Shown piece after piece: positions 835 to 63,080 of a DNA stretch of 64,000 nt (its first letter is position 1; each line of letters opens with the position of its first letter). The notes below the pieces were generated by a model. It ran no database searches and was not told the DNA's origin. It was given only the letters and a program-made list of their open reading frames with translations. The translations under genes were made by a program, and so were the position numbers. Source of the stretch: Escherichia coli (GTDB lineage Bacteria > Pseudomonadota > Gammaproteobacteria > Enterobacterales > Enterobacteriaceae); assembly GCF_030384885.1 (NCBI RefSeq), contig NZ_CP128613.1; one strand, written 5' to 3'.

Positions 835-2346
835 TTGCTTAACGCAAGGAATAAAAACGTATTGATGAACACTGGGAATTTCGAGTCGATACAAATCATG
901 ATCGCCGCGCAAGAGTGGCGTAGCCTGCCGCTGCATCTGCGTTTGTATCAGGCTTTTCGTCAGTTGGTGATTTCTGGCGCGTTGTCTGATGGCGCAAAAC
1001 TGCCGTCCGCTCGCGCACTGGCCCAGCAACTGCACCTTTCCAGAGATACCATCGAAAATGCCTATTCCCAGCTCCACCGCGACGGTTTTATGGCTCGCAG
1101 GCAGGGGGCCGGGAGTTTCGCCAGCCGCCAGGGGATACCGCATATTCAGGGCCAGCATGCGCAACCACCCTCGCCCGGACAAGTACCGGCTTTAAGCGCT
1201 CGCTGGCAGCCAATTGCCGATCGCGCAGTCTCTTTCGATGCCCGCCAGATGCAGACCTTTACGCTTGGCCTGCCGGAAACGCGAAACTTCCCGCTAAACA
1301 TTTGGCAGAACTTTTCCCGCCAGATCCAACGTGAGCAGGCGCATACGCTGATGTTAAATAGCGATCCGCAGGGCGAGCCACAGCTGCGCCAGCAAATTGC
1401 GCATTACCTTAATTTTGAACGCGGCGCGAAGGTAGATGCCGGGCAGATTGTGATTGTCAGCGGCGCACGGCAGGCGTTCTGGCTGTGCGGGCAACTGCTG
1501 GCAGAGGCCGGACAGTCGGTGGCGATGGAAAATCCGGGCTATCCCGGCGCGCGTCAGGCGTTTTCTGCCGCACAGCTTAATCTTCTTCCCGTTGAAGTGG
1601 ATGACGCCGGGATCCGGGTGGATAAACTGCCGCCCGCGCCGCTGGTTTACGTCACGCCCTCGCACCAGTTTCCTTCCGGTCATTTGCTCACGCTGGCGCG
1701 GCGTCATGCCCTGATTGCCTGGGCGCAGGCGCACAATGCATGGATTATCGAAGACGACTACGACAGCGAATTTCACTACACCAGCGCGCCCGTCGCCTGT
1801 CTGCAAGGGTTAGACTGCGAGCAACGCACCCTGTATGTCGGCACTTTCAGCAAAACGCTCTATCCCGGCCTGCGCATCGGTTATCTGGTGGTGCCGACGT
1901 CGCTGGCTGCGCACTTTGCCGCCGCGCGTAATTTGCTTGATGGCGCAACGCCTGCGTTATCCCAACTAACGCTGGCGCGATTTATCGAGTCCGGTCATTT
2001 TGCCGCCCATATTCGCAACATGCGCAGTATGTACGCAGTGCGACAGGCGAGCCTGGCAGAGGCTATTCATCAACACTTAAGTGAATGGGTCACGCCAGTG
2101 GTGACATCCGGTGGGTTACAAATGCCCTGCTGGCTGCATGAAGGTATTGATGAGCAACAGACGCTAAATGCCGCGCGCCGCGCCGGGTTAAACATCGCCG
2201 GAATGCGCCAGTTCTGGCTGACGCACCCCGCGCCCGCGGGCTGGCTGCTGGGATTTGCCGCCTTTACCCCCTACGAGATTGAACAGGGCGTCAAGCGTCT
2301 GCGGGCTGCATTATGCACTGAAAACGTGCGCCCAGCCGGGTCATAA
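835..2346 (+). CDS. MocR/GntR-family transcriptional regulator with PLP-dependent aminotransferase-like domain
   Basis: 503-aa ORF; N-terminal HTH-like segment (LPSARALAQQLHLSRDTIENAY) followed by an aminotransferase-fold domain with candidate PLP lysine (TFSKTLYPG); true start probably an internal Met near 898. Confidence 0.7.
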   Translation: MLNARNKNVLMNTGNFESIQIMIAAQEWRSLPLHLRLYQAFRQLVISGALSDGAKLPSARALAQQLHLSRDTIENAYSQLHRDGFMARRQGAGSFASRQGIPHIQGQHAQPPSPGQVPALSARWQPIADRAVSFDARQMQTFTLGLPETRNFPLNIWQNFSRQIQREQAHTLMLNSDPQGEPQLRQQIAHYLNFERGAKVDAGQIVIVSGARQAFWLCGQLLAEAGQSVAMENPGYPGARQAFSAAQLNLLPVEVDDAGIRVDKLPPAPLVYVTPSHQFPSGHLLTLARRHALIAWAQAHNAWIIEDDYDSEFHYTSAPVACLQGLDCEQRTLYVGTFSKTLYPGLRIGYLVVPTSLAAHFAAARNLLDGATPALSQLTLARFIESGHFAAHIRNMRSMYAVRQASLAEAIHQHLSEWVTPVVTSGGLQMPCWLHEGIDEQQTLNAARRAGLNIAGMRQFWLTHPAPAGWLLGFAAFTPYEIEQGVKRLRAALCTENVRPAGS

Positions 2347-3397
2347 TCTCATACGGGATGGTGTTGCAGGCAGCGGCAACCTGTTCCAGCGTCTGGCCTG
2401 CGCCAATAAATTCCACCTTATCGCCCGCTGTCGGCGTGACGGCGCTGGCATCGACCATAAAGCTGTCCATACAAACCCGCCCCAATACCGGTAACCGCAC
2501 GCCGCGCCAGCATACGCCCGCCGGAGGACGCATATTTCGCGGAACGCCATCCGCGTAACCCGCGGATATCGTAGCGATACGCAGCGGACGCGTGGCGGTA
2601 ATCGTACTGCCATAGCCAACTGGCGTTCCCGCCGGGACATCCTGCACGCGCAGAATAGTTAGCGTCAGCGTAAAAGCCGGTTTTAGCGGCCTGGAAAACC
2701 ACGGCTGGGCGACGCCAAACAGCGCAATCCCCGGACGGCAGAGATCTTCCCGCCAACCTGGTTGCAAAAACATTCCGCAGGAGTTCGCCAGCGAAAATCG
2801 GCTGCTGGGGAAAACCGTTTTTGCCTGCTGGAATAGCGCGTGTTGCGCCACATTTAACGCATGATCCGGCCTGTCGGCGTTCGCCAGATGGCTGATGATA
2901 TAGTCCGGCGCAGGCCAGTTACGCTCACGAAATATCGCCGCCAGACGCATCAGTTGTTGCGGCATCACGCCCAGCCGCGACATACCGGAATCGAGCTGGA
3001 TCATCACCGCACGCCGCTGCTGGCGCGTTTCCAGTAACGTAAGCCACGCCATCACCTGGTCAATGGAATTGAGCAATGGCGTGATCTGCTGCGCGTAACA
3101 ATACGCCATCGCCTCCGGCATAACCCCATTAAGCACTACCACCATCGCATCAGTGGGCAGGATTTTACGCAGCGCCACGCCCTCCGAAAGCTGTGCCACA
3201 AAAAAGATCCGGCAGTTCGCCGCATACAGGGCGGGCGCAATCGCCTCCGCCCCCAGACCATAGGCATTGGCTTTCAACACCGCGCCACATTGCGCAGGGG
3301 CAACATGGCGCGCCAGCGTGCGATAATTATCGACGATGGCGGCGAGATTGACGCACATAACGCCGCACGCCGCCTGGATTTCAGTAGAAGTCATCAT
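2291..3397 (-). CDS. alanine racemase family protein (PLP-dependent)
   Basis: 368-aa ORF with PLP-lysine motif VLKANAYGLG typical of alanine racemases; start overlaps the stop of the upstream SHMT-like gene. Confidence 0.7.
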   Translation of the reverse strand: MMTSTEIQAACGVMCVNLAAIVDNYRTLARHVAPAQCGAVLKANAYGLGAEAIAPALYAANCRIFFVAQLSEGVALRKILPTDAMVVVLNGVMPEAMAYCYAQQITPLLNSIDQVMAWLTLLETRQQRRAVMIQLDSGMSRLGVMPQQLMRLAAIFRERNWPAPDYIISHLANADRPDHALNVAQHALFQQAKTVFPSSRFSLANSCGMFLQPGWREDLCRPGIALFGVAQPWFSRPLKPAFTLTLTILRVQDVPAGTPVGYGSTITATRPLRIATISAGYADGVPRNMRPPAGVCWRGVRLPVLGRVCMDSFMVDASAVTPTAGDKVEFIGAGQTLEQVAAACNTIPYEIMTRLGARFQCIMQPADA

Positions 3398-4632
3398 TGA
3401 TAAGACAACGGGTAGCGGTTGGTTAGTTGTATTACTTTTTGCTCAATATCGGCGCAAATGCCTGCGATATCTGACGAGTTGATGGCGAAAATGATTTCAC
3501 TTATCCAGTCAGCAATAAGCACAAAATCATCCGCCTTCATCCCACGCGTGGTGCAGGCCGCGCTGCCAATACGGACCCCGGAGGTAATCGACGGCGGCTG
3601 CGGATCGCCCGGCAGGGTGTTTTTATTGACCGTGATCCCCGCCAGTTCGAGAAAGTACTCCACCTGTGCGCCGGTTAACCCCTGCGGGCGCAGGTCGATA
3701 ATCCCCAGATGGCAGTCGGTGCCGCCCGTTAACAGCGTCAGACCGCGCTGCGCCAGTTGCTGGCACATCGCCTGCGCATTGTCGATAACCTACCCGGCGT
3801 AACGTTTAAATTCTGGTTGTAATGCCTCGCCAAGCGCCACCGCTTTCGCCGCGATAACGTGCATCAACGGCCCGCCCTGCAAACCGGGAAAGATGGCGCT
3901 GTCGATTTTTTTCGCAAGCCTGGCGTCATTGGTGAGGATCATGCCGCCGCGCGGCCCGCGCAACGTTTTATGCGTGGTGGTGGTGACCACATCAGCATAC
4001 GCCAGCGGCGAAGGAAAACAGCCGCCCGCCACCAGCCCGGCAAAGTGCGCCATATCCACCAGCAAAATGGCATCAACGGCATCGGCAATGCGGCGAAAAC
4101 GGGCAAAATCATAGTGGCGTGGATAAGCCGATCCTCCGGCAATAATTAACCGTGGGCGCTCGCGTAGCGCGATCATCTCGACCTCATCCATATCAATCAG
4201 GCCACTATGGGCATCGACGCCATAGTGAAAGGCGTTAAACCATTTGCCGGATTGATTGACCGGAGAACCGTGCGTGAGATGCCCGCCGCATTGCAGGCTC
4301 ATGCCAAGAATTTTGTCGCCGGGCTTCAGCAACGCCAGATAGACCGCCTGATTCGCCTGGCTGCCGGAGTGAGGCTGCACATTGACGTAACGCGCGCCAA
4401 AGAGCTGCTGCGCGCGGGTTATCGCCAGCATCTCAACCTCATCAATAAACTTACAGCCGCCGTAATAGCGATGCTGGTAATAACCTTCGGCGTATTTATT
4501 GGTTAACACCGACCCCTGCGCCGCGAGAACGGCGGGGCTTACGAAATTCTCCGAGGCAATCAGTTCCAGCGACTGCTGCTGGCGCTGTTGCTCCTGGTTA
4601 ATCAATGCAAAAAGTGGATCGTTATTTATCAT
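3394..4632 (-). pseudogene. serine hydroxymethyltransferase (GlyA-like) paralog interrupted by an in-frame TAG at 3790-3792
   Basis: ORFs 3790..4698 and 3394..3768 are in the same frame; both halves align to SHMT ([17 protein letters not shown]-lysine motif; GITVNKN); the stop sits where GlyA has a Gln in the YQQQV region. Confidence 0.65.
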
Positions 4633-4864
4633 GCGCTTCCCCCGCAAATTCATCATGCGATGATTTTCGCAGGGAAAACCTCGTCCGCACCCTGCCACTT
4701 TTTAGACTGAGCGCAGACCACCTATGTCGTTTTACTTAAAAGAAGAGGGAAGAAGGCTCCAGGCATCTCCATATGCGATTCTGGTTGGTAATACATCATA
4801 TTCCAGCTGCTCTTATCCGCCTACGTTATTGCATATACGGATAAGGCAGCCTCAATACGTACTT

Positions 4865-6430
4865 TTACTTGATATCTTTCACGCGCATACCGTTGATCTG
4901 TTCATCCGTGATGGTATTACCCGCTTTAAAGTAATCAACCACCGCGTGATAAACGTAATAACCGCCCGTCGTATTGCGCGCTTTACCCTCGGTAAACGCG
5001 GTAAAACCATCTCCACCATCAGCAAGGAAACTCTGAGTGGCAATGTGGTAAACCGTCGCATCTTCAATCGGTTCGCCATTCAGAGTCAGCGAGATAACCC
5101 GCTGACCAACCGGCTTGCTGCTGTCGTACTTCATTTCCAGGCCTTTCGATACCTGTAAAACGCCATTACTTAAACTTGCGCCGTGTTCCATCAAACTGCG
5201 TAATTGTTTACCCGTGAGTTCCATCGTCACCAGTTCGTTGGGGAACGGGAAGGTACTGATGACGCCACCCATCGTAATTGCACCCGCCGGGATCTCATTG
5301 CGGATACCGCCAGAGTTGGTTAACGCCAACTGGGTATTTTTACCCGCCGCTGCCAGCAAAGCGTCCGCCGCCAGATTCCCGAGAGAAGCCGATTCACCAT
5401 AGGCACGTTTCAATTCAACTGGCGATTGCGCCACCGTTTGCTGCACGACTTCATCCAGCTTTTTATTCCAACTATCAATCACCTGTTTTGTTTGCGGATC
5501 GGGCTTCCACTCGTCGGCGTAAAGGGTTTTAAGCTCGAAGTTTTTCACCGTAAAAGTGTGCGGCTTCTCTTTGTAGTCTAGAACCAGTTTACCCACATCA
5601 ATCCCGCCGCTGTCAGTGGAGAGGATTAACGTATTGCCGACTTTAATCGGTTCCGGCGTACCCACATGTGCATGCCCGGTGATCAAAATATCCAGCCCTT
5701 TCACCTGACTTGCCGTCTGAATATCTTTATCCAGTGCGCGGCGCACATCTGTGCCCCCCATACTGGACTGGCGGGCCGGAACACCTTCGTGAATCAGCGC
5801 AACGGTCAAATCAACCTTGCCTTTGAGTTCATCGATATAACGTTGTAGCCATTTAATTTCATCACGCGCCTCAATACCCACTCGCGTTGCCGCAGATACC
5901 GTATCATTAAAGGCAAATACACCGTGCAAACCAATCACGCCAATTTTCACGCCGTCTTTTTCAATGATGGTATAGGGCTTATCCCAGAATGATTTACTGC
6001 TGTTCTGATAAAAAACATTACCCTGCACAATCGGGAATTTTGCCTGACTCAACTGTAATAACGTATTGTCCCAGCCGTGATCAAATTCATGATTACCTAT
6101 AGTGGCCGCATCGAACGGCATGGTATTCATAATATCGATAATCGCCTTGCCTTTAGTCAGGCTGCTAATATACGGCCCGGTAAAATAGTCACCCGCATCA
6201 AAAAACCAGGTCGCTTTGTTTTTAGCTTTTTCTTGTTTAACAAGCGTAGTGATATTTGCCCAGCCGCCAATATCTCGTTTACCGTCAGCAATCCACGGCA
6301 CTTTATAAGGCTCTACATGTGCATGGAGGTCGTTGGTATAAATGATGGTGACATCTTTGGCGCAAGCCCAAAACGGCAGTGTTAATGCGATACCCGCAGC
6401 AAGCATTTTAATTTTCATAAACAATCCCAT
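4865..6430 (-). CDS. secreted bifunctional metallophosphatase / 5'-nucleotidase (UshA family), paralog 1
   Basis: 521-aa ORF; signal-peptide-like N-terminus; metallophosphatase motifs [23 protein letters not shown]; C-terminal 5'-nucleotidase domain. Confidence 0.8.
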
Positions 6431-6477: not shown

Positions 6478-6493
6478 TGTGAGAATACTCACA
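6478..6493. promoter_or_regulatory. perfect consensus CRP-type site TGTGA-N6-TCACA in divergent promoter region
   Basis: sequence TGTGAGAATACTCACA read directly between the divergent nucleotidase gene (4865..6430) and the zinc-ribbon gene (6551..7678). Confidence 0.4.
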
Positions 6494-6550
6494 TCCAGAG
6501 GCGATAACTGTAGGACAAAATCAACGACCTTATGAAATCGTTGGTGATAT

Positions 6551-7678
6551 ATGTCAAATCTGTTTGCGATTAATGTCTGTAAAACGTTCGGTTGTCGAAA
6601 TTTGGGATTGGCCTCATCGGAAGATTACAGTTGGCCAGACTATAAACTGGGTTTTCCGGCACTGCACTGCCAGGCATGCGGAAGTTACCCCCCTTTGTTT
6701 GATGAACAACAATTTCGTGACTGGTTGTCAGTTCACATGACTGCGTGTGCCATAGAAACAGGGCATTTTTGTCCATCATGCTATTGTAAAGAAAAGATTT
6801 TTTATGGCCACAACCCGCAGGGAACACAACGCGTTCAATGCCGTTCATGCAAAAAAGTCTGGACTCCGAAACAGCAGCCAGCAAGAGAAATTACGTATCC
6901 CCAGTCCATTGAAACCGTTCAACTGTTCATGCCCTTTCAAGGAGCCAGCGCAGTACAAAAGCTCTATGTTTTAGTCAGTCTTGACGCCACTCGTGGCAAC
7001 ATCCTTCATCTCTCCACGAATTATACGCAACATCAGACAGGAGACAGTCTGCGGTACAGTTACAGAGGCAATACAGAACCAACTGAGCACCATAGCGATA
7101 TTGCGCAGAGGGTAGATATGCGTGAAGCACAATTCTTGCGCCGGAGCCAGTTCGATGAAATTCAGTATGGCAGTGCTGTGCTCAAGCGCAACGGCAAGGG
7201 AGCCATACTACGCCCGGTTATCACGGCACACGGGCATTTCAGAATACTGAAAATCCGCTTTCCACATGTCAAAACGCATATCATTTCACACGAATGTTTT
7301 CTGAGAGGCGCAATTATTACAGCCTGGGCAGATCAGTTCCGCCAACAACAAGGCGAACTTTGGTTCGTAGAGGAAGAAATCAGCGACCGTAATGCTGATA
7401 TTCCCTGGCATTTTCAGGGAACGACATACCATGGTTGGTGGCAAAATCAGTGGCAACGCTGGGGGCAGGGGAATAACAGCAAGATGGTCTGCCTGCTCAC
7501 AGGAGTCTCCTTAGAAAGGGGCGCAAATGTTTCTCTGGCAACCAGTCGTTGCTTTATCACATGGCTGACAGACCAACACGACTTTACCCAAAGCGCGTTA
7601 TTATCCGCAGGTCGCGTAACGAAAATGCTGACCTCACTGGCGTTAAAATACAATGAATCGCTCACTCCATCTTGTTAG
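6551..7678 (+). CDS. hypothetical protein with N-terminal Cys-rich zinc-ribbon (IS1 InsA-like / transposase-type zinc finger)
   Basis: 375-aa ORF; Cys pattern CPSCYC...QRVQCRSCKKVW resembles InsA-type zinc ribbons; the rest has no motif I recognise. Confidence 0.45.
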   Translation: MSNLFAINVCKTFGCRNLGLASSEDYSWPDYKLGFPALHCQACGSYPPLFDEQQFRDWLSVHMTACAIETGHFCPSCYCKEKIFYGHNPQGTQRVQCRSCKKVWTPKQQPAREITYPQSIETVQLFMPFQGASAVQKLYVLVSLDATRGNILHLSTNYTQHQTGDSLRYSYRGNTEPTEHHSDIAQRVDMREAQFLRRSQFDEIQYGSAVLKRNGKGAILRPVITAHGHFRILKIRFPHVKTHIISHECFLRGAIITAWADQFRQQQGELWFVEEEISDRNADIPWHFQGTTYHGWWQNQWQRWGQGNNSKMVCLLTGVSLERGANVSLATSRCFITWLTDQHDFTQSALLSAGRVTKMLTSLALKYNESLTPSC

Positions 7679-7907
7679 TCAATACACTCGACAAACGACC
7701 ATAAATTAATGGGATCACTATTTCTCATTTAATTAAATATATGAATGTATGACTGAAAAATATAATCACAGTCAATGTTTAATTAATAACATTATTTGTT
7801 ACTAAGATCACATAATACTTTCCTGACCTATGTTTACATAAAAATAAGACACGGTGTTCCTTTTATTTAAATAATTCAACCAATGTAACAACCCCTATCA
7901 AGGAGGG

Positions 7908-9461
7908 ATGATGAGAACTGTATTTACGACTTTATCAGTCATATTCAGCGTGATGTTTTCTCACAGTATACTAGCTCAGGACGTTACTATTTATTATACG
8001 AATGATATTCACGCACATGTCAATCCGGCAAAAATTCCCGCTGTTGATAAGAACAGACTTGTAGGTGGTATGGCTAATATTGCAGGCATCGTTAATGAAG
8101 CGAAGAAAAAAAACAAAGATGTCTTTTTCTTTGATGCAGGCGACTATTTTACCGGTCCGTATATCAGTACCCTGACCAAAGGTGAAGCTATTATTGATAT
8201 CATGAACACCATGCCCTTTGATGCGGTGTCCGTTGGTAATCACGAGTTCGATCACGGCGTGCCCAATATGGTATCTCAGTTATCAAAAGCAAAATTCCCC
8301 ATTCTGCTGGGAAATATTTACTACACCGATACAAATAAACCAGTTTGGGATCATCCGTGGACCATTATCGAAAAAGATGGTTTAAAGATTGGTGTGATTG
8401 GATTGCATGGTGCATTCGCTTTCTATGATACAGTCGCGGCAAAAGCACGTGAAGGCGTAGAAGCCAGAGACGAAATTAAATATTTAAATAAAGCACTTGC
8501 AGAATTAAAAGGTAAAGTCGACATTACCGTTTTGCTAATTCACGAAGGTGTTCCGGCGCGTCAATCAAGCTTTGGTAGTAAAGATGTGGAGCGGCTACTA
8601 CAGGCAGATATTGAGACAGCTAAAAAAGTGAATGGTGTTGATGTCTTAATTACCGGTCACGCACATGTCGGAACACCGCAACCAATAAAAGTTAATAACA
8701 CATTAATTGTATCTACCGATGCATACGGCACCGACATCGGAAAACTTGTGCTTGATTACAATCCGAAAACAAAGAAAATTGATAGTTATAATGGTGAGTT
8801 AATCACCATCTTTGCAGATCAATTTAAACCTGACACCATCGTTCAAAATACTATCGATAAATGGAGCATAAAGCTTAACAAAATAACACAGGAAGTTGTC
8901 GGCCATTCTCCCGTAGTTTTAACACGTGAGTATGGCAGTTCTTCTTCTACCGGTAACCTTATTCTAGATGCAATGATGGAAAAAACACCTGATGCCATTG
9001 CCGGATTTCAAAATAGCGGTGGGATGCGAGCTGATTTTCCTAAAGGTGATATCACACTGGGAGATGTTATTAGCACATTCCCCTTTAATAATGACCTCAT
9101 CGAGATGGATTTGACGGGCCGCGATCTCAAATCATTGATGACGCATGCAACCAATCTAACTAACGGTGTGTTACAGGTTTCAAAAAGCGTTGCGGTTGTC
9201 TATGACAGCAAAAAACCACTCAACCAACGGTTAATCTCTTTCACCATTAACGGCAAACCCGTGGAAGATAATCAAACATATCGTATTGCCACGCACTCCT
9301 TTTGTGCCAGTGGTGGTGACGGTTTTGAAGCATTTTTGAATGGAAAAAATGTGAAGACGATACCGGGAACAACCTCGGCGGAATCTATCATCGATTATTT
9401 CAAAAATCATAAACCTGTCACCCCAGACTTAACTAAACGAGTCATGGACGTCGCCAAATAA
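7908..9461 (+). CDS. secreted bifunctional metallophosphatase / 5'-nucleotidase (UshA family), paralog 2
   Basis: 517-aa ORF; signal peptide; same metallophosphatase motifs as paralog 1 ([23 protein letters not shown]). Confidence 0.8.
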   Translation: MMRTVFTTLSVIFSVMFSHSILAQDVTIYYTNDIHAHVNPAKIPAVDKNRLVGGMANIAGIVNEAKKKNKDVFFFDAGDYFTGPYISTLTKGEAIIDIMNTMPFDAVSVGNHEFDHGVPNMVSQLSKAKFPILLGNIYYTDTNKPVWDHPWTIIEKDGLKIGVIGLHGAFAFYDTVAAKAREGVEARDEIKYLNKALAELKGKVDITVLLIHEGVPARQSSFGSKDVERLLQADIETAKKVNGVDVLITGHAHVGTPQPIKVNNTLIVSTDAYGTDIGKLVLDYNPKTKKIDSYNGELITIFADQFKPDTIVQNTIDKWSIKLNKITQEVVGHSPVVLTREYGSSSSTGNLILDAMMEKTPDAIAGFQNSGGMRADFPKGDITLGDVISTFPFNNDLIEMDLTGRDLKSLMTHATNLTNGVLQVSKSVAVVYDSKKPLNQRLISFTINGKPVEDNQTYRIATHSFCASGGDGFEAFLNGKNVKTIPGTTSAESIIDYFKNHKPVTPDLTKRVMDVAK

Positions 9462-9495: not shown

Positions 9496-11121
9496 ATGCG
9501 AATGAAAACAGTGCAGCGTACTTTACTTGCCGCAACATTGCTGACTATTTTTTCGGTCTCGGTCATGGCGCAGGATGTCACGATTATTTATACAAATGAT
9601 CTTCACGCTCATGTGGATTCTTATAAAGTGCCGTATATCGCAGACGGAAAACGCGACATTGGCGGCTTTGCCAATATATCTACTTTAGTAAAACAAGAGA
9701 AAGCGAAAAATAAAGCCACCTTTTATTTTGATGCTGGAGACTATTTCACCGGCCCTTATATCAGCAGTCTGACAAAGGGCGAAGCAATAATTGACATTAT
9801 GAATACCATGCCTTTTGACGCAGTATCAATCGGTAATCATGAGTTTGACCATGGCTGGGATAATGCCCTGCGACAATTAAGCAAAGCGAATTTTCCTGTT
9901 TTATTGGGCAATGTTTATCATAAAGAGAGTGAAAAACCCTTCTGGAACAAGCCCTACACCATCCTGGAAAAAGATGGCATCAAGATTGGTATTATTGGGC
10001 TACACGGCGTATTTGCATTTAATGATACGGTCTCGGAGCTCTCTCTCCAGGGACTCGATAATGACAATAATAACCGCTTTGATAAATCTTCCGAGACCCT
10101 TAAGAATCAGGGGATTGAAGCACGTGATGAAGTGAAGTATTTGCAGCATTATATCGACGAGTTACGTGATAAGGTTGACCTCACTGTGGCGCTGGTTCAT
10201 GAAGGCGTTCCGGCGCGTCAGTCCAGCATTGGCAATACAGATGTTAGACGCGCTCTTGATAAAGATATTCAAACCGCTAGCAAGGTGAAAGGATTGGATA
10301 TTCTGATTACCGGGCATGCCCACGTCGGAACGCCAGAACCAATCAAAGTCGGCAACACCTTAATCCTTTCGACTGATAGTGGCGGTATCGATATTGGTAA
10401 ATTAGTCCTTGATGTCAACCCTACAGCTCGTACCCATAAAATGAAGAGCTTTGAGCTGAAAACAGTTTATGCCGATGAATGGATACCCGATCCAACGACA
10501 CAAAAAGTTATCAATGGCTGGAATAAAAAACTGGCGGATATTGTACGCCAACCAGTGGGTGAATCATCGATTGCATTAACTCGCGCCTATGGTGAGTCAT
10601 CGCAACTAGGCAACCTGTTTACCGATGCAATGCTTGTCGCTGCTCCGACTGCACAGATTGCATTGATAAACTCCGGCAGCTTACGTGCGGATATAAATGC
10701 AGGCACGATTACCTTTGGCGACATTACCAGTACATTCCCCTTCAAGAATGAACTTACTGAAATGGATCTCAGCGGTAAGGATCTGCGTAACCTACTGGAA
10801 CACGGGGCATCGCTTACCAATGGCATCCTGCAAATGTCAAAAGGCGCAGAAATGCGCTATACCCCGCAGAAACCAGTAGGTCAGCGCATAGTATCTTTTA
10901 AAATTAATGGTGAAGAGATCGTTGATACGAATATTTACCATGTTGCAACAACGACTTTCCTTGCACTGGGGGGCGATGGTTTTCTGGCATTCAAAGAAGG
11001 GAAAAATGTTCAGGTCCGCGCCGGAAAAAACATGTCCGATGTCGTGATCGATTATTTGAAGAAAGGCCACAAGATTACGCCTGCACAGGTAAATGAAATG
11101 CGGGTGGACGTTAGCAAATAA
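9496..11121 (+). CDS. secreted bifunctional metallophosphatase / 5'-nucleotidase (UshA family), paralog 3
   Basis: 541-aa ORF, closely similar to paralog 1 by eye, with a short inserted segment (LQGLDNDNNNRFDKSSETLKNQG). Confidence 0.8.
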   Translation: MRMKTVQRTLLAATLLTIFSVSVMAQDVTIIYTNDLHAHVDSYKVPYIADGKRDIGGFANISTLVKQEKAKNKATFYFDAGDYFTGPYISSLTKGEAIIDIMNTMPFDAVSIGNHEFDHGWDNALRQLSKANFPVLLGNVYHKESEKPFWNKPYTILEKDGIKIGIIGLHGVFAFNDTVSELSLQGLDNDNNNRFDKSSETLKNQGIEARDEVKYLQHYIDELRDKVDLTVALVHEGVPARQSSIGNTDVRRALDKDIQTASKVKGLDILITGHAHVGTPEPIKVGNTLILSTDSGGIDIGKLVLDVNPTARTHKMKSFELKTVYADEWIPDPTTQKVINGWNKKLADIVRQPVGESSIALTRAYGESSQLGNLFTDAMLVAAPTAQIALINSGSLRADINAGTITFGDITSTFPFKNELTEMDLSGKDLRNLLEHGASLTNGILQMSKGAEMRYTPQKPVGQRIVSFKINGEEIVDTNIYHVATTTFLALGGDGFLAFKEGKNVQVRAGKNMSDVVIDYLKKGHKITPAQVNEMRVDVSK

Positions 11122-11198: not shown

Positions 11199-12059
11199 AT
11201 GTGTATAAAAAAGCACGGGATAGCTTTATCGATTCTATTAATACCTTGCATTGGAAACGCTCAGAAAATTAAAAGTGAGGAAGGCTGGTTACATCAAAGC
11301 TTGAATGTCATTGGTCGCACAGACTCTCGCTTTGGCCCAAGGCTGACTAACGACCTCTACCCTGAATATACTGTAGCAGGAAGAAAAGACTGGTTTGATT
11401 TTTATGGTTATGTTGATCTACCAAAATTCTTTGGCGTCGGCAGTCACTATGATGTTGGGATCTGGGATGAGGGCTCACCACTATTTACGGAAATAGAACC
11501 TCGGTTTTCCATTGACAAATTGACCGGATTAAATCTTGCGTTCGGCCCTTTTAAAGAATGGTTCATTGCAAACAACTATGTCTATGATATGGGTGACAAC
11601 CAGTCATCCCGGCAAAGTACATGGTATATGGGGCTTGGTACAGATATCGACACGGGTCTACCAATTAAGCTTTCTGCCAATATATACGCCAAGTATCAGT
11701 GGCAAAACTATGGTGCCGCTAATGAAAATGAATGGGACGGATATCGATTCAAAATAAAATATAGCATTCCTCTTACCCATTTATTCGGAGGGCGATTGGT
11801 ATACAATAGTTTTACTAACTTTGATTTTGGATCCGATCTTGCGGACAAATCACACAATAATAAACGAACCAGTAATGCTATTGCTTCAAGCCATATCCTT
11901 TCCCTGCTATATGAACACTGGAAATTTGCATTTACACTACGTTATTTTCACAACGGTGGACAATGGAATGCTGGGGAGAAAGTTAACTTCGGAGATGGTC
12001 CATTTGAATTAAAAAACACAGGATGGGGAACCTATACTACTATTGGTTATCAATTTTAA
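11199..12059 (+). CDS. nucleoside-specific outer-membrane channel, Tsx family (paralog of tsx)
   Basis: 286-aa ORF with signal peptide; long conserved blocks shared with Tsx ([15 protein letters not shown]; [26 protein letters not shown]); ends in aromatic residue typical of beta-barrels. Confidence 0.85.
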
Positions 12060-17136: not shown

Positions 17137-17250
17137 ATGATGAAAAAAATAATTCCCGCCGTAGTCTGTTTGTTGCTTTGTAGTTGCACGACCTTTCCGC
17201 AAGCTGTCGCTCCGGCAGGGAAAGATTACGAAAGCCCGCTCCCAGCAAGG
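17137..17250 (+). other. lipoprotein-like ORF fragment running into the ISAs1 element
   Basis: ORF 17137..17514 begins MMKKIIPAVVCLLLCSCTT (signal peptide with lipobox-like LCSC) and then overlaps the 3' end of the transposase gene on the opposite strand. Confidence 0.25.
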
Positions 17251-18480
17251 ACTGACGCCAGATACTTTCTGTCCATGGCTGCTTTTCGCATCTTACGTCT
17301 TAACCCTGCCTTGAATACCTTATCATTCGTTAAAATATTAATAGCGATGTGCCGTATCCCTGAAAATAATTCTGCGGCGTTTCCTCTTCGTATTTTGCAG
17401 TCGTCTTCATTCATTACCACGTCCAGACGCCAGTGCAGCTTATTCTCCACGTGCCAGTGGTTTCGGATTGCTGTGGCGAACTTTTCTGCGGTTAAATCAG
17501 CAGAACTGATATAATATCTGACCGTCATTTCTGGCTCTTTCTTTTGTTCTGCTATTATTGACCGAAAGGAGAATGCCACGCATAATTTCTTCAGTCCTTT
17601 CCATTCAAACGTGAAATCAATAAGTTCATCACGGACATCGCAAACAATATGAAGACGGATTTCTTCTCTGCCGTGACTCTTTTCACTCATTGCGTAACTG
17701 TCATGCTCTGGATTATTTAATTCTTTCAGCGGAAATTTTTCCTCGAAGGCTTTATTTAGCCGCCCCTGGTTTCCTTTTACAGCGAATACATAATCACCGC
17801 CCTGTTTTTGTATCTTCTCTGCAATATCTTTCTGGCAACCCATCGCATCAGTTGTGATGATTTTTCCTTTAATATCCAGCATGTTAAGAAGTTCAGGGAT
17901 AGCTGTAATTTCATTGGATTTCTCATCCGTCCTGATCTGTCCGATGACCAGACTGTGCATTGTTGAGAATGCACTAATGACATGAATCGCTCCCCTGCGG
18001 CGACTCTTGTCATAAGAATGCCGGAGTGTTTTTCCATCAATTGCGATGACGTCTTTATCATCTGAAGTATGGCAATCTCGCATCCAGTTAATAAAGCACT
18101 CGTGAAATTTTGAAGGACTGATACAGGATACAACTCTGGCGATGGTATCGTGAACAGGAATACCATTTTCAAAATCACCATATTGTTTTAAAAAATCGCG
18201 ATGTGCTTCCCCAAAATCCTCTATATGTTCCCAGCCTTCTGCACCAGAAATAACGGCGCAAATAGTCAACAGTAGAATATCCGATAATTTATGTTCCACT
18301 TTCCAGGTTTGTCTGTAATCGGGGATAATAGAAATATGTTCCATCAATTTTTTAAGTTCCATTCTTTTCTCCTTAATTATGTAAGGAGTATTTGATCATG
18401 TATAAGCAATAAAAAAACAGCTTCAGGCAATGAGGAATATCTCAATTTTTAAACATAAAATGCGAATTGTTTAGTACAAA
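17140..18480 (-). mobile_element. ISAs1-family insertion sequence (H-repeat element); ends approximate
   Basis: single transposase ORF filling a segment of about 1.3 kb, typical of H-rpt elements; terminal repeats not determined. Confidence 0.6.
17226..18362 (-). CDS. ISAs1-family transposase (H-repeat-associated protein)
   Basis: 378-aa ORF recognised as the H-repeat (H-rpt) protein found in Rhs elements. Confidence 0.85.
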
Positions 18481-62243: not shown

Positions 62244-63080
62244 TTAATTATGAATCAAACGCTGCGGATGGGTATAAACCGTTGCCCGACCCGGCTTACA
62301 AAAGCCCACCAGCGTCAAATTACAGCGCTCAGCCACTTCTACGGCAAGCGTGGTCGCGGCAGACACCGCAAACAAAATTTCTACGCCGCACATCGCTGAC
62401 TTTTGCACCATTTCATAACTGGCACGACTGGAAACCAGCACCGCACCTTGATGCCAGCTTTCCCCTTCTTGTGACCGGCGGCCTAACAGTTTATCCAGCG
62501 CCACATGGCGACCCACGTCTTCATGCCCGCCTACCAGTTCGCCAGATGGCAACATCCAGGCAGCGGCGTGAGTACAACCAGTCAGTTGCCCCACTGGCTG
62601 GAAATCATTGAGATGGCGTAATGCATCATCCAGTTTGTTGAGATCAAATGTCTGAGTGAACGGCAGCGGCTGCACCGGTTTACCGATGTCATTAAGTTGC
62701 TCCACGCCGCACACGCCACATCCCGTACGTCCCGCCAGTGCCCGACGACGCTCCTTCAACCCCATAAAGCGGCGGCTGGAAAGCTCAATTTGCACTTCCA
62801 GACCATTACAGGAAGGAACGACATCCATGCCAAAGATATCGCGCGGACTTTCGATAATCCCCTCGGAAAGCGAAAAACCGAGCGCAAAGTATTCAAGGTC
62901 TTTGGGCGACGCCATCATCACCACATGCGAAATGCCGTTGTAGACCAGCGCAACGGGAACCTCTTCCGCCACCTCATCTAACCGTGGGTGTTGTAAATCG
63001 TCACGCCGCCATAACTCAATTTGACGAACACCTGTGACATTTGTCACATTTTTGATTTCTTTTTGCTGTGTTTTTTTCAC
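62244..63080 (-). CDS. fdhD: formate dehydrogenase accessory sulfurtransferase FdhD
   Basis: 278-aa ORF recognised as FdhD. Confidence 0.95.

Follow-up and report, generated by a model that had tools for sequence, protein, structure and literature searches.

A 64,000-nucleotide window of an Escherichia coli genome (contig NZ_CP128613.1 of assembly GCF_030384885.1) holds a gene for a 375-amino-acid (aa) protein whose N terminus resembles part of a transposase and whose neighbours encode 5'-nucleotidases, which raises the question of whether it is a decaying mobile element, an enzyme, or a host protein with a regulatory task. We lean, with slightly more belief than doubt, towards the last of these: a domesticated, catalytically disabled protein resembling the DDE transposases (named for their Asp-Asp-Glu triad), which would act with CRP as a sequence-specific regulator of the adjacent periplasmic hydrolase gene. 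The open reading frame (ORF) is intact, starts with ATG and runs from 6551 to 7678 on the plus strand, with exactly the coordinates and length given in the preliminary description of this DNA, and alignment placed its N terminus in register with those of all homologues. RefSeq names the product 'cytoplasmic protein' (WP_074501000.1), and the window is near-identical (99.9%) to E. coli strain 2013C-4282. Other database names are uninformative or wrong, being mostly 'cytoplasmic protein' or 'hypothetical', and a literature search found no description of this protein family. Three relatives (P0251-P0253) carry the names 'lactate dehydrogenase' (Vibrio, Parasalinivibrio) and 'IS1 family transposase' (Cronobacter), both of which appear to be misannotations.

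The N-terminal cysteine pairs that had first drawn attention to the protein proved to be real and conserved across the 73 family members used for column statistics (denominators count the members with a residue at the column in question). They form two Cys4 clusters. The first, at 6572..6682 (+; residues 8-44, NxCKxxGCxNxG...CxxCG), comprises C10 and C15, each present in 64/64 members, and C40 and C43, each present in 66/66. It contains strands at residues 26-30 and 37-40 in an AlphaFold2 (AF2) model and was matched by no library model, either in this protein or in the 50 members scanned; we describe it as a family-specific zinc-ribbon-like module. The second cluster, at 6770..6865 (+; residues 74-105, CPSC...CRSC), is a zinc ribbon of the type found in IS1 InsA, IS1595 and IS256-variant transposases. 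C97 and C100 are each present in 69/69 members, C77 in 67/69 and C74 in 60/69.

The earlier assignment of this second cluster as an InsA-type ribbon holds above chance at the level of the family but is sub-threshold for this protein alone. By itself, the protein scored 10.1 bits (E = 0.69) against Pfam Zn_ribbon_InsA, below the cut-off of 26.1, and 15.1 bits against NCBIfam IS1_IS1595_Zn (NF050000), below the cut-off of 28. Its score against NCBIfam transpos_IS1 (NF033558; cut-off 100) was 20.4 bits and covered residues 74-136 only, and PHROG 1191 'transposase' matched at E = 0.0027, the ribbon being the only part matched in PHROGs. Across the family, IS1_IS1595_Zn matched 40/50 members, with a best E value of 1.8e-10, and the IS256-variant 4-Cys domain matched 29/50; in a separate scan, two of ten relatives passed the curated IS1_IS1595_Zn cut-off (P0253 with 38.9 bits and P0123 with 31.4 bits). 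Using hhalign, we aligned the family profile with residues 5-87 of IS1 InsAB', which correspond to the InsA zinc finger and helix-turn-helix (HTH), at a probability of 96.6% (E = 5.4e-10), and the relative P0140 aligned with the NCBIfam IS1 model up to position 130/199, beyond the InsA part. Judged by these comparisons, the ribbon, together with the HTH in those relatives that have one, is homologous to IS1 InsA.

The HTH itself is found in distant relatives of 400-530 aa, in which a segment of ~55 aa aligned with that of InsA. This segment has been deleted from the E. coli protein and from the clade to which it belongs (57-100% identity, 375-391 aa), and the AF2 model has no helices between residues 105 and 119 of the E. 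coli protein. For InsA, both the zinc finger and the HTH are required for binding to the IS1 terminal repeats, and InsA represses transposition (PMC12428005).

Beyond the ribbons, residues 106-375 had no sequence-library match in any of the 50 members. An exhaustive search of 1.84 billion representative proteins returned 123 relatives, down to ~20% identity, and a profile search seeded with distant members added few new sequences. An AF2 model built from 26 close homologues alone reached a predicted local distance difference test score (pLDDT) of 40.6. The final alignment added distant relatives from the representative search (73 sequences including other relatives), and the resulting model had a pLDDT of 94.6 and a predicted template modelling score (pTM) of 0.93.

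In this model, residues 119-264 (6905..7342, +) form an RNase-H-like core of the DDE transposase/integrase type. Its strands lie at residues 119-129, 136-145, 151-156, 218-220 and 242-246 and its helices at 184-197, 222-236 and 249-264, in the order strand 1, strand 2, strand 3, helix, strand 4, helix, strand 5, helix. This order fits the RNase-H-like fold, a five-stranded mixed sheet with flanking helices, and on the strength of the predicted model we regard the fold assignment as firm. The core is followed (7343..7675, +) by an extra four-stranded sheet that bears a GWWxNxW motif (residues 269-315; W296, W297 and W301) and by a C-terminal helical bundle (residues 322-370, including N368). 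A Foldseek search of the PDB found nothing at E < 1e-3, and the relation to solved DDE cores is therefore distant; among viral structures, Foldseek found one weak match to an IS4 transposase (E = 5e-3). A sequence search of the PDB gave spurious C2H2 zinc-finger matches only.

The preliminary description had recognised no DDE or other motif in this part of the protein. That was right for the catalytic residues, as there is no DDE triad and no Pfam DDE domain in any of 50 members, but it missed the DDE transposase/integrase fold of the core. Strand 1 has no acidic column in the 73 members, with Thr or Ser at position 122 in 66/71, and after strand 4, at the second Asp site of DDE enzymes, the family has R/K221 and P222 (Pro in 70/73). 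On this alignment, the whole family is without at least two of the three catalytic carboxylates. E248, acidic in 73/73, stands at the start of the helix following strand 5, near the Glu site of DDE enzymes, and may be a relic of the catalytic Glu; alternatively, the position of that Glu may correspond to T257, with R264 seven residues on, as in the E-N7-R of IS1. Elsewhere, R198, H229 and W301 are invariant, H247 and R252 are near-invariant, D202 is acidic in 64/73 members, and Y169, N157, W296, W297 and N368 are also conserved. The conserved core residues are common to paralogues tied to different pathways.

Conservation of this kind across paralogues, with an acidic residue at the head of the helix near the DDE Glu site, would also be expected if the protein were still an enzyme that had acquired a new His/Glu active site (H229, H247, E248, R198 and D202) within the RNase-H-like core. 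Such an enzyme might be a site-specific nickase or recombinase at an inverted repeat in the control region, or an RNase acting on the operon transcript. We consider this quite improbable. Both canonical Asp positions are non-acidic family-wide, no nuclease-family library model matched, and no rearrangement was seen, the control region being colinear in all orthologues; the spacer of the inverted repeat is only 10 bp. A phase-variation invertase was rejected for the same colinearity and short spacer.

Loss of the catalytic residues from a protein with a transposase-type ribbon and fold could instead mark a functionless, decaying insertion-sequence (IS) remnant, and some databases do name relatives 'IS1 family transposase' or 'transposase-like protein'. 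The genomic evidence points firmly the other way. The gene matched 1841/5426 complete E. coli genomes (~one third), with the match covering at least 80% of the query in 658, and each of the 1841 genomes has exactly one copy. No IS-type terminal repeats flank the gene; the check for flanking inverted repeats, which had been recommended, returned only short, low-identity matches of the kind expected by chance. The site between metF and metL holds the gene in Escherichia, Citrobacter, Pseudocitrobacter and Klebsiella, and the full-length ORF has been kept from Escherichia to Vibrio. Compared with four orthologues, the ratio of nonsynonymous to synonymous substitution rates (dN/dS) was 0.08-0.10, while 67-74% of synonymous sites differed, which is near saturation; the gene is under strong purifying selection. 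Its neighbours are conserved, as is the 135-bp upstream control region, which has a mean column identity of 87% among the window, the common E. coli allele and Citrobacter, whose proteins are respectively 72% and 61% identical to that of the window for the latter two.

The gene is thus a single-copy, immobile gene of transposase ancestry with a fixed metF-metL site, and the original suggestion that it is transposase-derived and domesticated is borne out by the copy number, the lack of terminal repeats and the dN/dS values. The degraded transposase that had been offered as its alternative is rejected because of the selection and synteny data, together with the full-length conservation and single copy, and we find a decaying remnant scarcely credible. 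Three loci, in Klebsiella oxytoca, K. pneumoniae ATCC 13883 and Enterobacter vonholyi (L023, L025 and L027), gave ATG-only calls of 184-265 aa, although tblastn nonetheless spanned residues 1-372; either differing start codons or frameshifts account for these calls. A 303-aa E. coli variant (P0375) also exists.

Family members are present in many Citrobacter, Klebsiella, Enterobacter and Vibrio genomes, and their distribution is best explained by a small, vertically inherited family in Enterobacteriaceae and Vibrionaceae. The PADLOC defence library gave no match. To describe the gene's company, ORFs within 6 kb of the gene at 54 loci from these two groups were clustered without prior labels. 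The dominant neighbour cluster was a 5'-nucleotidase with Metallophos and 5_nucleotid_C domains, found at 40/54 loci with a median gap of 133 bp. In arrangement A (Escherichia, Citrobacter, Klebsiella, Pluralibacter, Atlantibacter, Enterovibrio and some Vibrio) the nucleotidase gene is divergent; in the window this conserved partner lies at 4865..6430 (-; RefSeq start ~6418). In arrangement B (Vibrio, Photobacterium) the nucleotidase gene is followed 23-37 bp on by the family gene on the same strand. Arrangement C, seen at nine further loci, belongs to a paralogous branch in Franconibacter, Buttiauxella, Phytobacter, Kosakonia, Citrobacter and Atlantibacter, where the family gene terminates an operon that Pfam resolved into a Tsx channel, a sulfatase and a radical-SAM/SPASM maturase, 13-24 bp after the maturase gene.

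Other relatives lie beside a NupC-type nucleoside transporter and a nucleoside phosphorylase, or directly after a nucleoside phosphorylase, and one locus had no nucleoside- or hydrolase-type neighbour. By inspection of the neighbour table, the outer flanks are of ~20 different kinds, and the pairing of gene and nucleotidase is therefore kept independently of location. The translated partner enzymes, including the divergent 5'-nucleotidase of the window, have signal-peptide-like N termini on inspection, and the 375-aa protein has none. It had been suggested that the protein regulates the flanking nucleotidase genes; comparative genomics strongly supports the genomic link, and the regulatory role itself is inferred. 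In arrangement C (L034-L041 and L047) the sulfatase carries a CSPSR formylglycine motif, and three of these loci (L034, L035 and L047) have an arylsulfotransferase gene upstream on the opposite strand. It would be unusual for a Tsx-type channel to be devoted to a sulfated substrate.

The divergent control region of the window contains a CRP-type box, TGTGAgaatacTCACA, at 6478..6493, in which both consensus half-sites are perfect and which is conserved among orthologous loci as well as paralogous ones. A second element, which we call the ACCAAC box, reads ACCAACGATTTCATAAGGT in the direction of the 5'-nucleotidase gene; it occupies 6527..6545 (-), ends 6 nt before the ATG of the 375-aa ORF and is a candidate operator of the 375-aa protein. 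Overlapping this box is an inverted repeat at 6522..6543, CAACGAcc-N6-aaTCGTTG, formed by two AyCAACGA half-sites. The repeat is unique in the window, with 0.07 occurrences expected by chance, and is conserved in Escherichia, Citrobacter and Pluralibacter. The half-site AAATCGTTGG, with up to 2 mismatches allowed, occurs in the window at chance-level frequency.

We compared control regions across loci by reading each towards its hydrolase gene, with its best CRP-type box (TGTGA-N6-TCACA) as the anchor. In 34/48 of these regions the ACCAAC box starts exactly 52 bp upstream of the start of the CRP box. They comprise every one of the 18 main-clade arrangement-A loci with a CRP box, window included, 13/15 arrangement-B (Vibrionaceae) loci and three paralogue loci (L028-L030). 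In arrangement C, the offset is 49-51 bp in 7/9 loci. A weight matrix derived from arrangement-B sites only was scanned over both strands of the entire 21-kb loci of the other arrangements, and its best match fell inside the control region in L034, L035, L030, L032, L033, L042 and L044. Apart from these two sites, the control regions of one arrangement cannot be aligned with those of another, and the proteins share only ~25% identity; a fixed hexamer at a fixed offset is therefore not inherited neutral sequence.

The right half of the box differs between clades that keep the HTH and those that do not. In HTH-keeping clades it reads G-x-x-A-x-T (GGAAACT, GTCACT, GTCAGT). In the HTH-less E. coli clade it is not conserved, and the second, inverted AyCAACGA half-site stands in its place. 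This apparent co-variation between HTH loss and the right half of the box offers the best hint we have that it is the protein that reads the box, and would make the HTH-less clade a natural experiment on the rebuilding of DNA recognition.

CRP-type boxes are frequent in the window, with seven found against 1.8 expected, including another perfect box at 63033-63048 and a one-mismatch box, TGTTActaagaTCACA, at 7797-7812, which precedes the second 5'-nucleotidase gene (7908) by ~100 bp. This 7797-7812 site lacks an ACCAAC box at the 52-bp upstream offset. In the Vibrionaceae (loci L012 and L043-L059), a palindrome, GCAAACGTTTGC, or a close variant of it (GCAAACGATTGC, GAAACGTTTGC) was present in 6/12 listed regions upstream of the 5'-nucleotidase gene (L012, L045, L048, L051, L052 and L059), and it lies between the ACCAAC and CRP boxes in the four regions that have a strong CRP box. 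From its sequence, the palindrome looks like an operator of the LacI family (PurR/CytR type), and the ACCAAC box, palindrome and CRP box together suggest a three-factor cassette.

The box also bears on a different account of the protein, in which it would not regulate transcription by binding DNA but would assist the neighbouring periplasmic enzymes as an accessory factor in the cytoplasm, or act after transcription by binding RNA. This account would explain why the gene is operon-terminal, with gaps of 13-37 bp, in the Vibrionaceae and sulfatase arrangements, it would sit well with the missing HTH of the E. coli clade, and zinc ribbons are known to bind RNA or protein as well. Against it, a conserved DNA box at a fixed spacing from CRP accompanies the gene, and the homologue of its N-terminal module is known to bind DNA in a sequence-specific way. 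The partner enzymes are moreover unrelated (a metallophosphoesterase and a sulfatase), the sulfatase has its own radical-SAM maturase, and a predicted hairpin in the 5' untranslated region is no more stable than shuffled sequence (z = -0.74). We judge an accessory or RNA-binding role to be unlikely.

Under the regulatory reading that we favour, the 375-aa protein would bind the ACCAAC box (6527-6545) through its zinc ribbon or ribbons, aided by the HTH in those relatives that have one. From a position about five helical turns upstream of CRP, it would modulate CRP-dependent transcription of the 5'-nucleotidase gene. When the two genes diverge, as in E. coli, with the box so close to the protein's own start codon, binding would also repress its own gene. 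The dead core (R198, H229 and W301, with H247, R252 and E248) would serve oligomerisation, effector sensing, or both.

Several observations weigh against this reading. The E. coli clade has lost the HTH that InsA needs to bind DNA, and DNA binding is for that reason not transferable from InsA without reservation. Comparison of the core (residues 112-375) with an IS1 alignment gave an hhalign probability of 0.35%, with no sequence-level similarity, where the IS1 homologue search behind the comparison had yielded near-identical sequences only. The core residues shared among paralogues are more readily explained by a biochemical activity or structural role that all have in common than by the sensing of pathway-specific ligands. 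The gene is last in a hydrolase operon in two of the three arrangements, a position typical also of accessory proteins. Finally, the box could belong to another factor: TGTCA in some clades resembles half of a Pho-box repeat, and the Vibrio regions also have the LacI-type palindrome GCAAACGTTTGC between the box and the CRP site.

A more ambitious form of the regulatory reading would make the family a class of bacterial transcription factors not described before, with an IS1-like DDE transposase as ancestor, in which the ribbon, with or without the HTH, reads the box, the dead pocket (R198, H229, H247, E248) senses or oligomerises, and paralogues have been separately recruited. We put this forward tentatively, with our doubts somewhat ahead of our confidence. 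If it is true, the ACCAAC box occupies the position of the distal CRP dimer in CytR-type nucleoside promoters, and paralogues were recruited separately to 5'-nucleotidase, nucleoside transporter/phosphorylase and Tsx-sulfatase operons. In either form, the regulatory reading would add a layer of control to extracellular nucleotide scavenging.

That a domesticated transposase can act as a regulator is not a new idea. Eukaryotes provide well-documented examples of DDE transposases recruited by the host as regulators; our literature search found no described bacterial case of a DDE transposase recruited in this way. Novelty appears to lie in the family, in the fold assigned to it, in its association with 5'-nucleotidase and Tsx-sulfatase operons, and in the architecture in which ACCAAC and CRP boxes are 52 bp apart. 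The family makes a testable case, being vertically inherited, with a transposase fold whose active site is dead, a conserved partner gene and a candidate operator phased with CRP.

In the window, the island that holds the gene lies between metF and metL and also carries genes for a MocR-type regulator, an alanine racemase, three 5'-nucleotidases and a Tsx-type channel, and a serine hydroxymethyltransferase pseudogene. Downstream of the 375-aa gene and on the same strand are a second 5'-nucleotidase paralogue (7908..9461, +), a third (9496..11121, +) and the Tsx-family outer-membrane nucleoside channel (11199..12059, +; RefSeq, and Pfam Channel_Tsx at E = 4.9e-70). Three paralogous periplasmic 5'-nucleotidase genes and a Tsx-family channel gene therefore share one island here; the common E. 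coli allele at metF-metL (L003, L004) has one nucleotidase gene and the ORF only, and some E. coli and E. albertii genomes have a further three-nucleotidase locus at another site (L019, L020). The serine hydroxymethyltransferase-like gene (3394-4698, -) is split by an internal stop into ORFs of 124 and 302 aa and is a pseudogene in the RefSeq annotation of the near-identical strain. It adjoins the alanine racemase gene (2291-3397, -) and the MocR-type GntR/aminotransferase regulator gene (835-2346, +), whose 3' ends overlap. Farther along, a 378-aa ORF at 17226-18362 (-) is annotated in the near-identical strain as an ISAs1 family transposase, after which that strain has a group II intron reverse transcriptase, an IS1 fragment and an RHS element.

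Among known systems, IS1 InsAB' shares with the 375-aa protein a Cys4 ribbon, an HTH in the case of the distant relatives, and an RNase-H-like core after them. By analogy, the self-repression proposed near the protein's own start codon would resemble the binding of InsA to the IS1 left inverted repeat (PMC12428005). The differences are considerable. Unlike InsAB', the 375-aa protein has no DDE triad, frameshift, terminal repeats or mobility, and its clade has deleted the HTH. It is 375 rather than 232 aa long, adding the N-terminal Cys4 module, a beta-sheet and a helical tail, its score of 20.4 bits stands against a curated IS1 cut-off of 100, and its core has no detectable sequence similarity to that of InsB.

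The control region invites comparison with the CRP-CytR-CRP cassettes of udp, deo, tsx, nupG and cdd, in which nucleoside-scavenging genes are likewise under CRP and a second factor at fixed spacing. In the udp cassette, 30-31 bp separate the two CRP operators (PMC3454398). Here, with starts 52 bp apart and an ACCAAC box 19 bp long, the gap from the end of that box to the CRP box is a similar 33 bp. The resemblance is no more than an analogy, because the distal site is an ACCAAC box and not a CRP box. The presumed binder also differs in not belonging to the LacI family, and the E. coli control region yielded no CytR half-sites.

The solved DDE cores considered were those of the integrase in the Tn7 TnsABCD transpososome, ISCth4 (IS256/Mutator), the prototype foamy virus (PFV) and human immunodeficiency virus (HIV) integrases, Mos1, Tn5 and MuA. 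As modelled, the 375-aa protein shares their RNase-H-like fold; it differs from them in a sequence identity of 6-14% and in the absence of the catalytic Asp residues. Immobile transposon proteins with host functions are also known from other lineages, as in TldR, a nuclease-dead repressor derived from TnpB, and RayT (TnpA-REP), a domesticated IS200/IS605 protein. TldR is an RNA-guided, RuvC-like protein and RayT an HUH Y1 enzyme that is still catalytic, and their folds and mechanisms are unrelated to those of the 375-aa protein. TldR is nonetheless a catalytically dead regulator encoded beside its target genes, just as the 375-aa protein would be under the reading proposed here.

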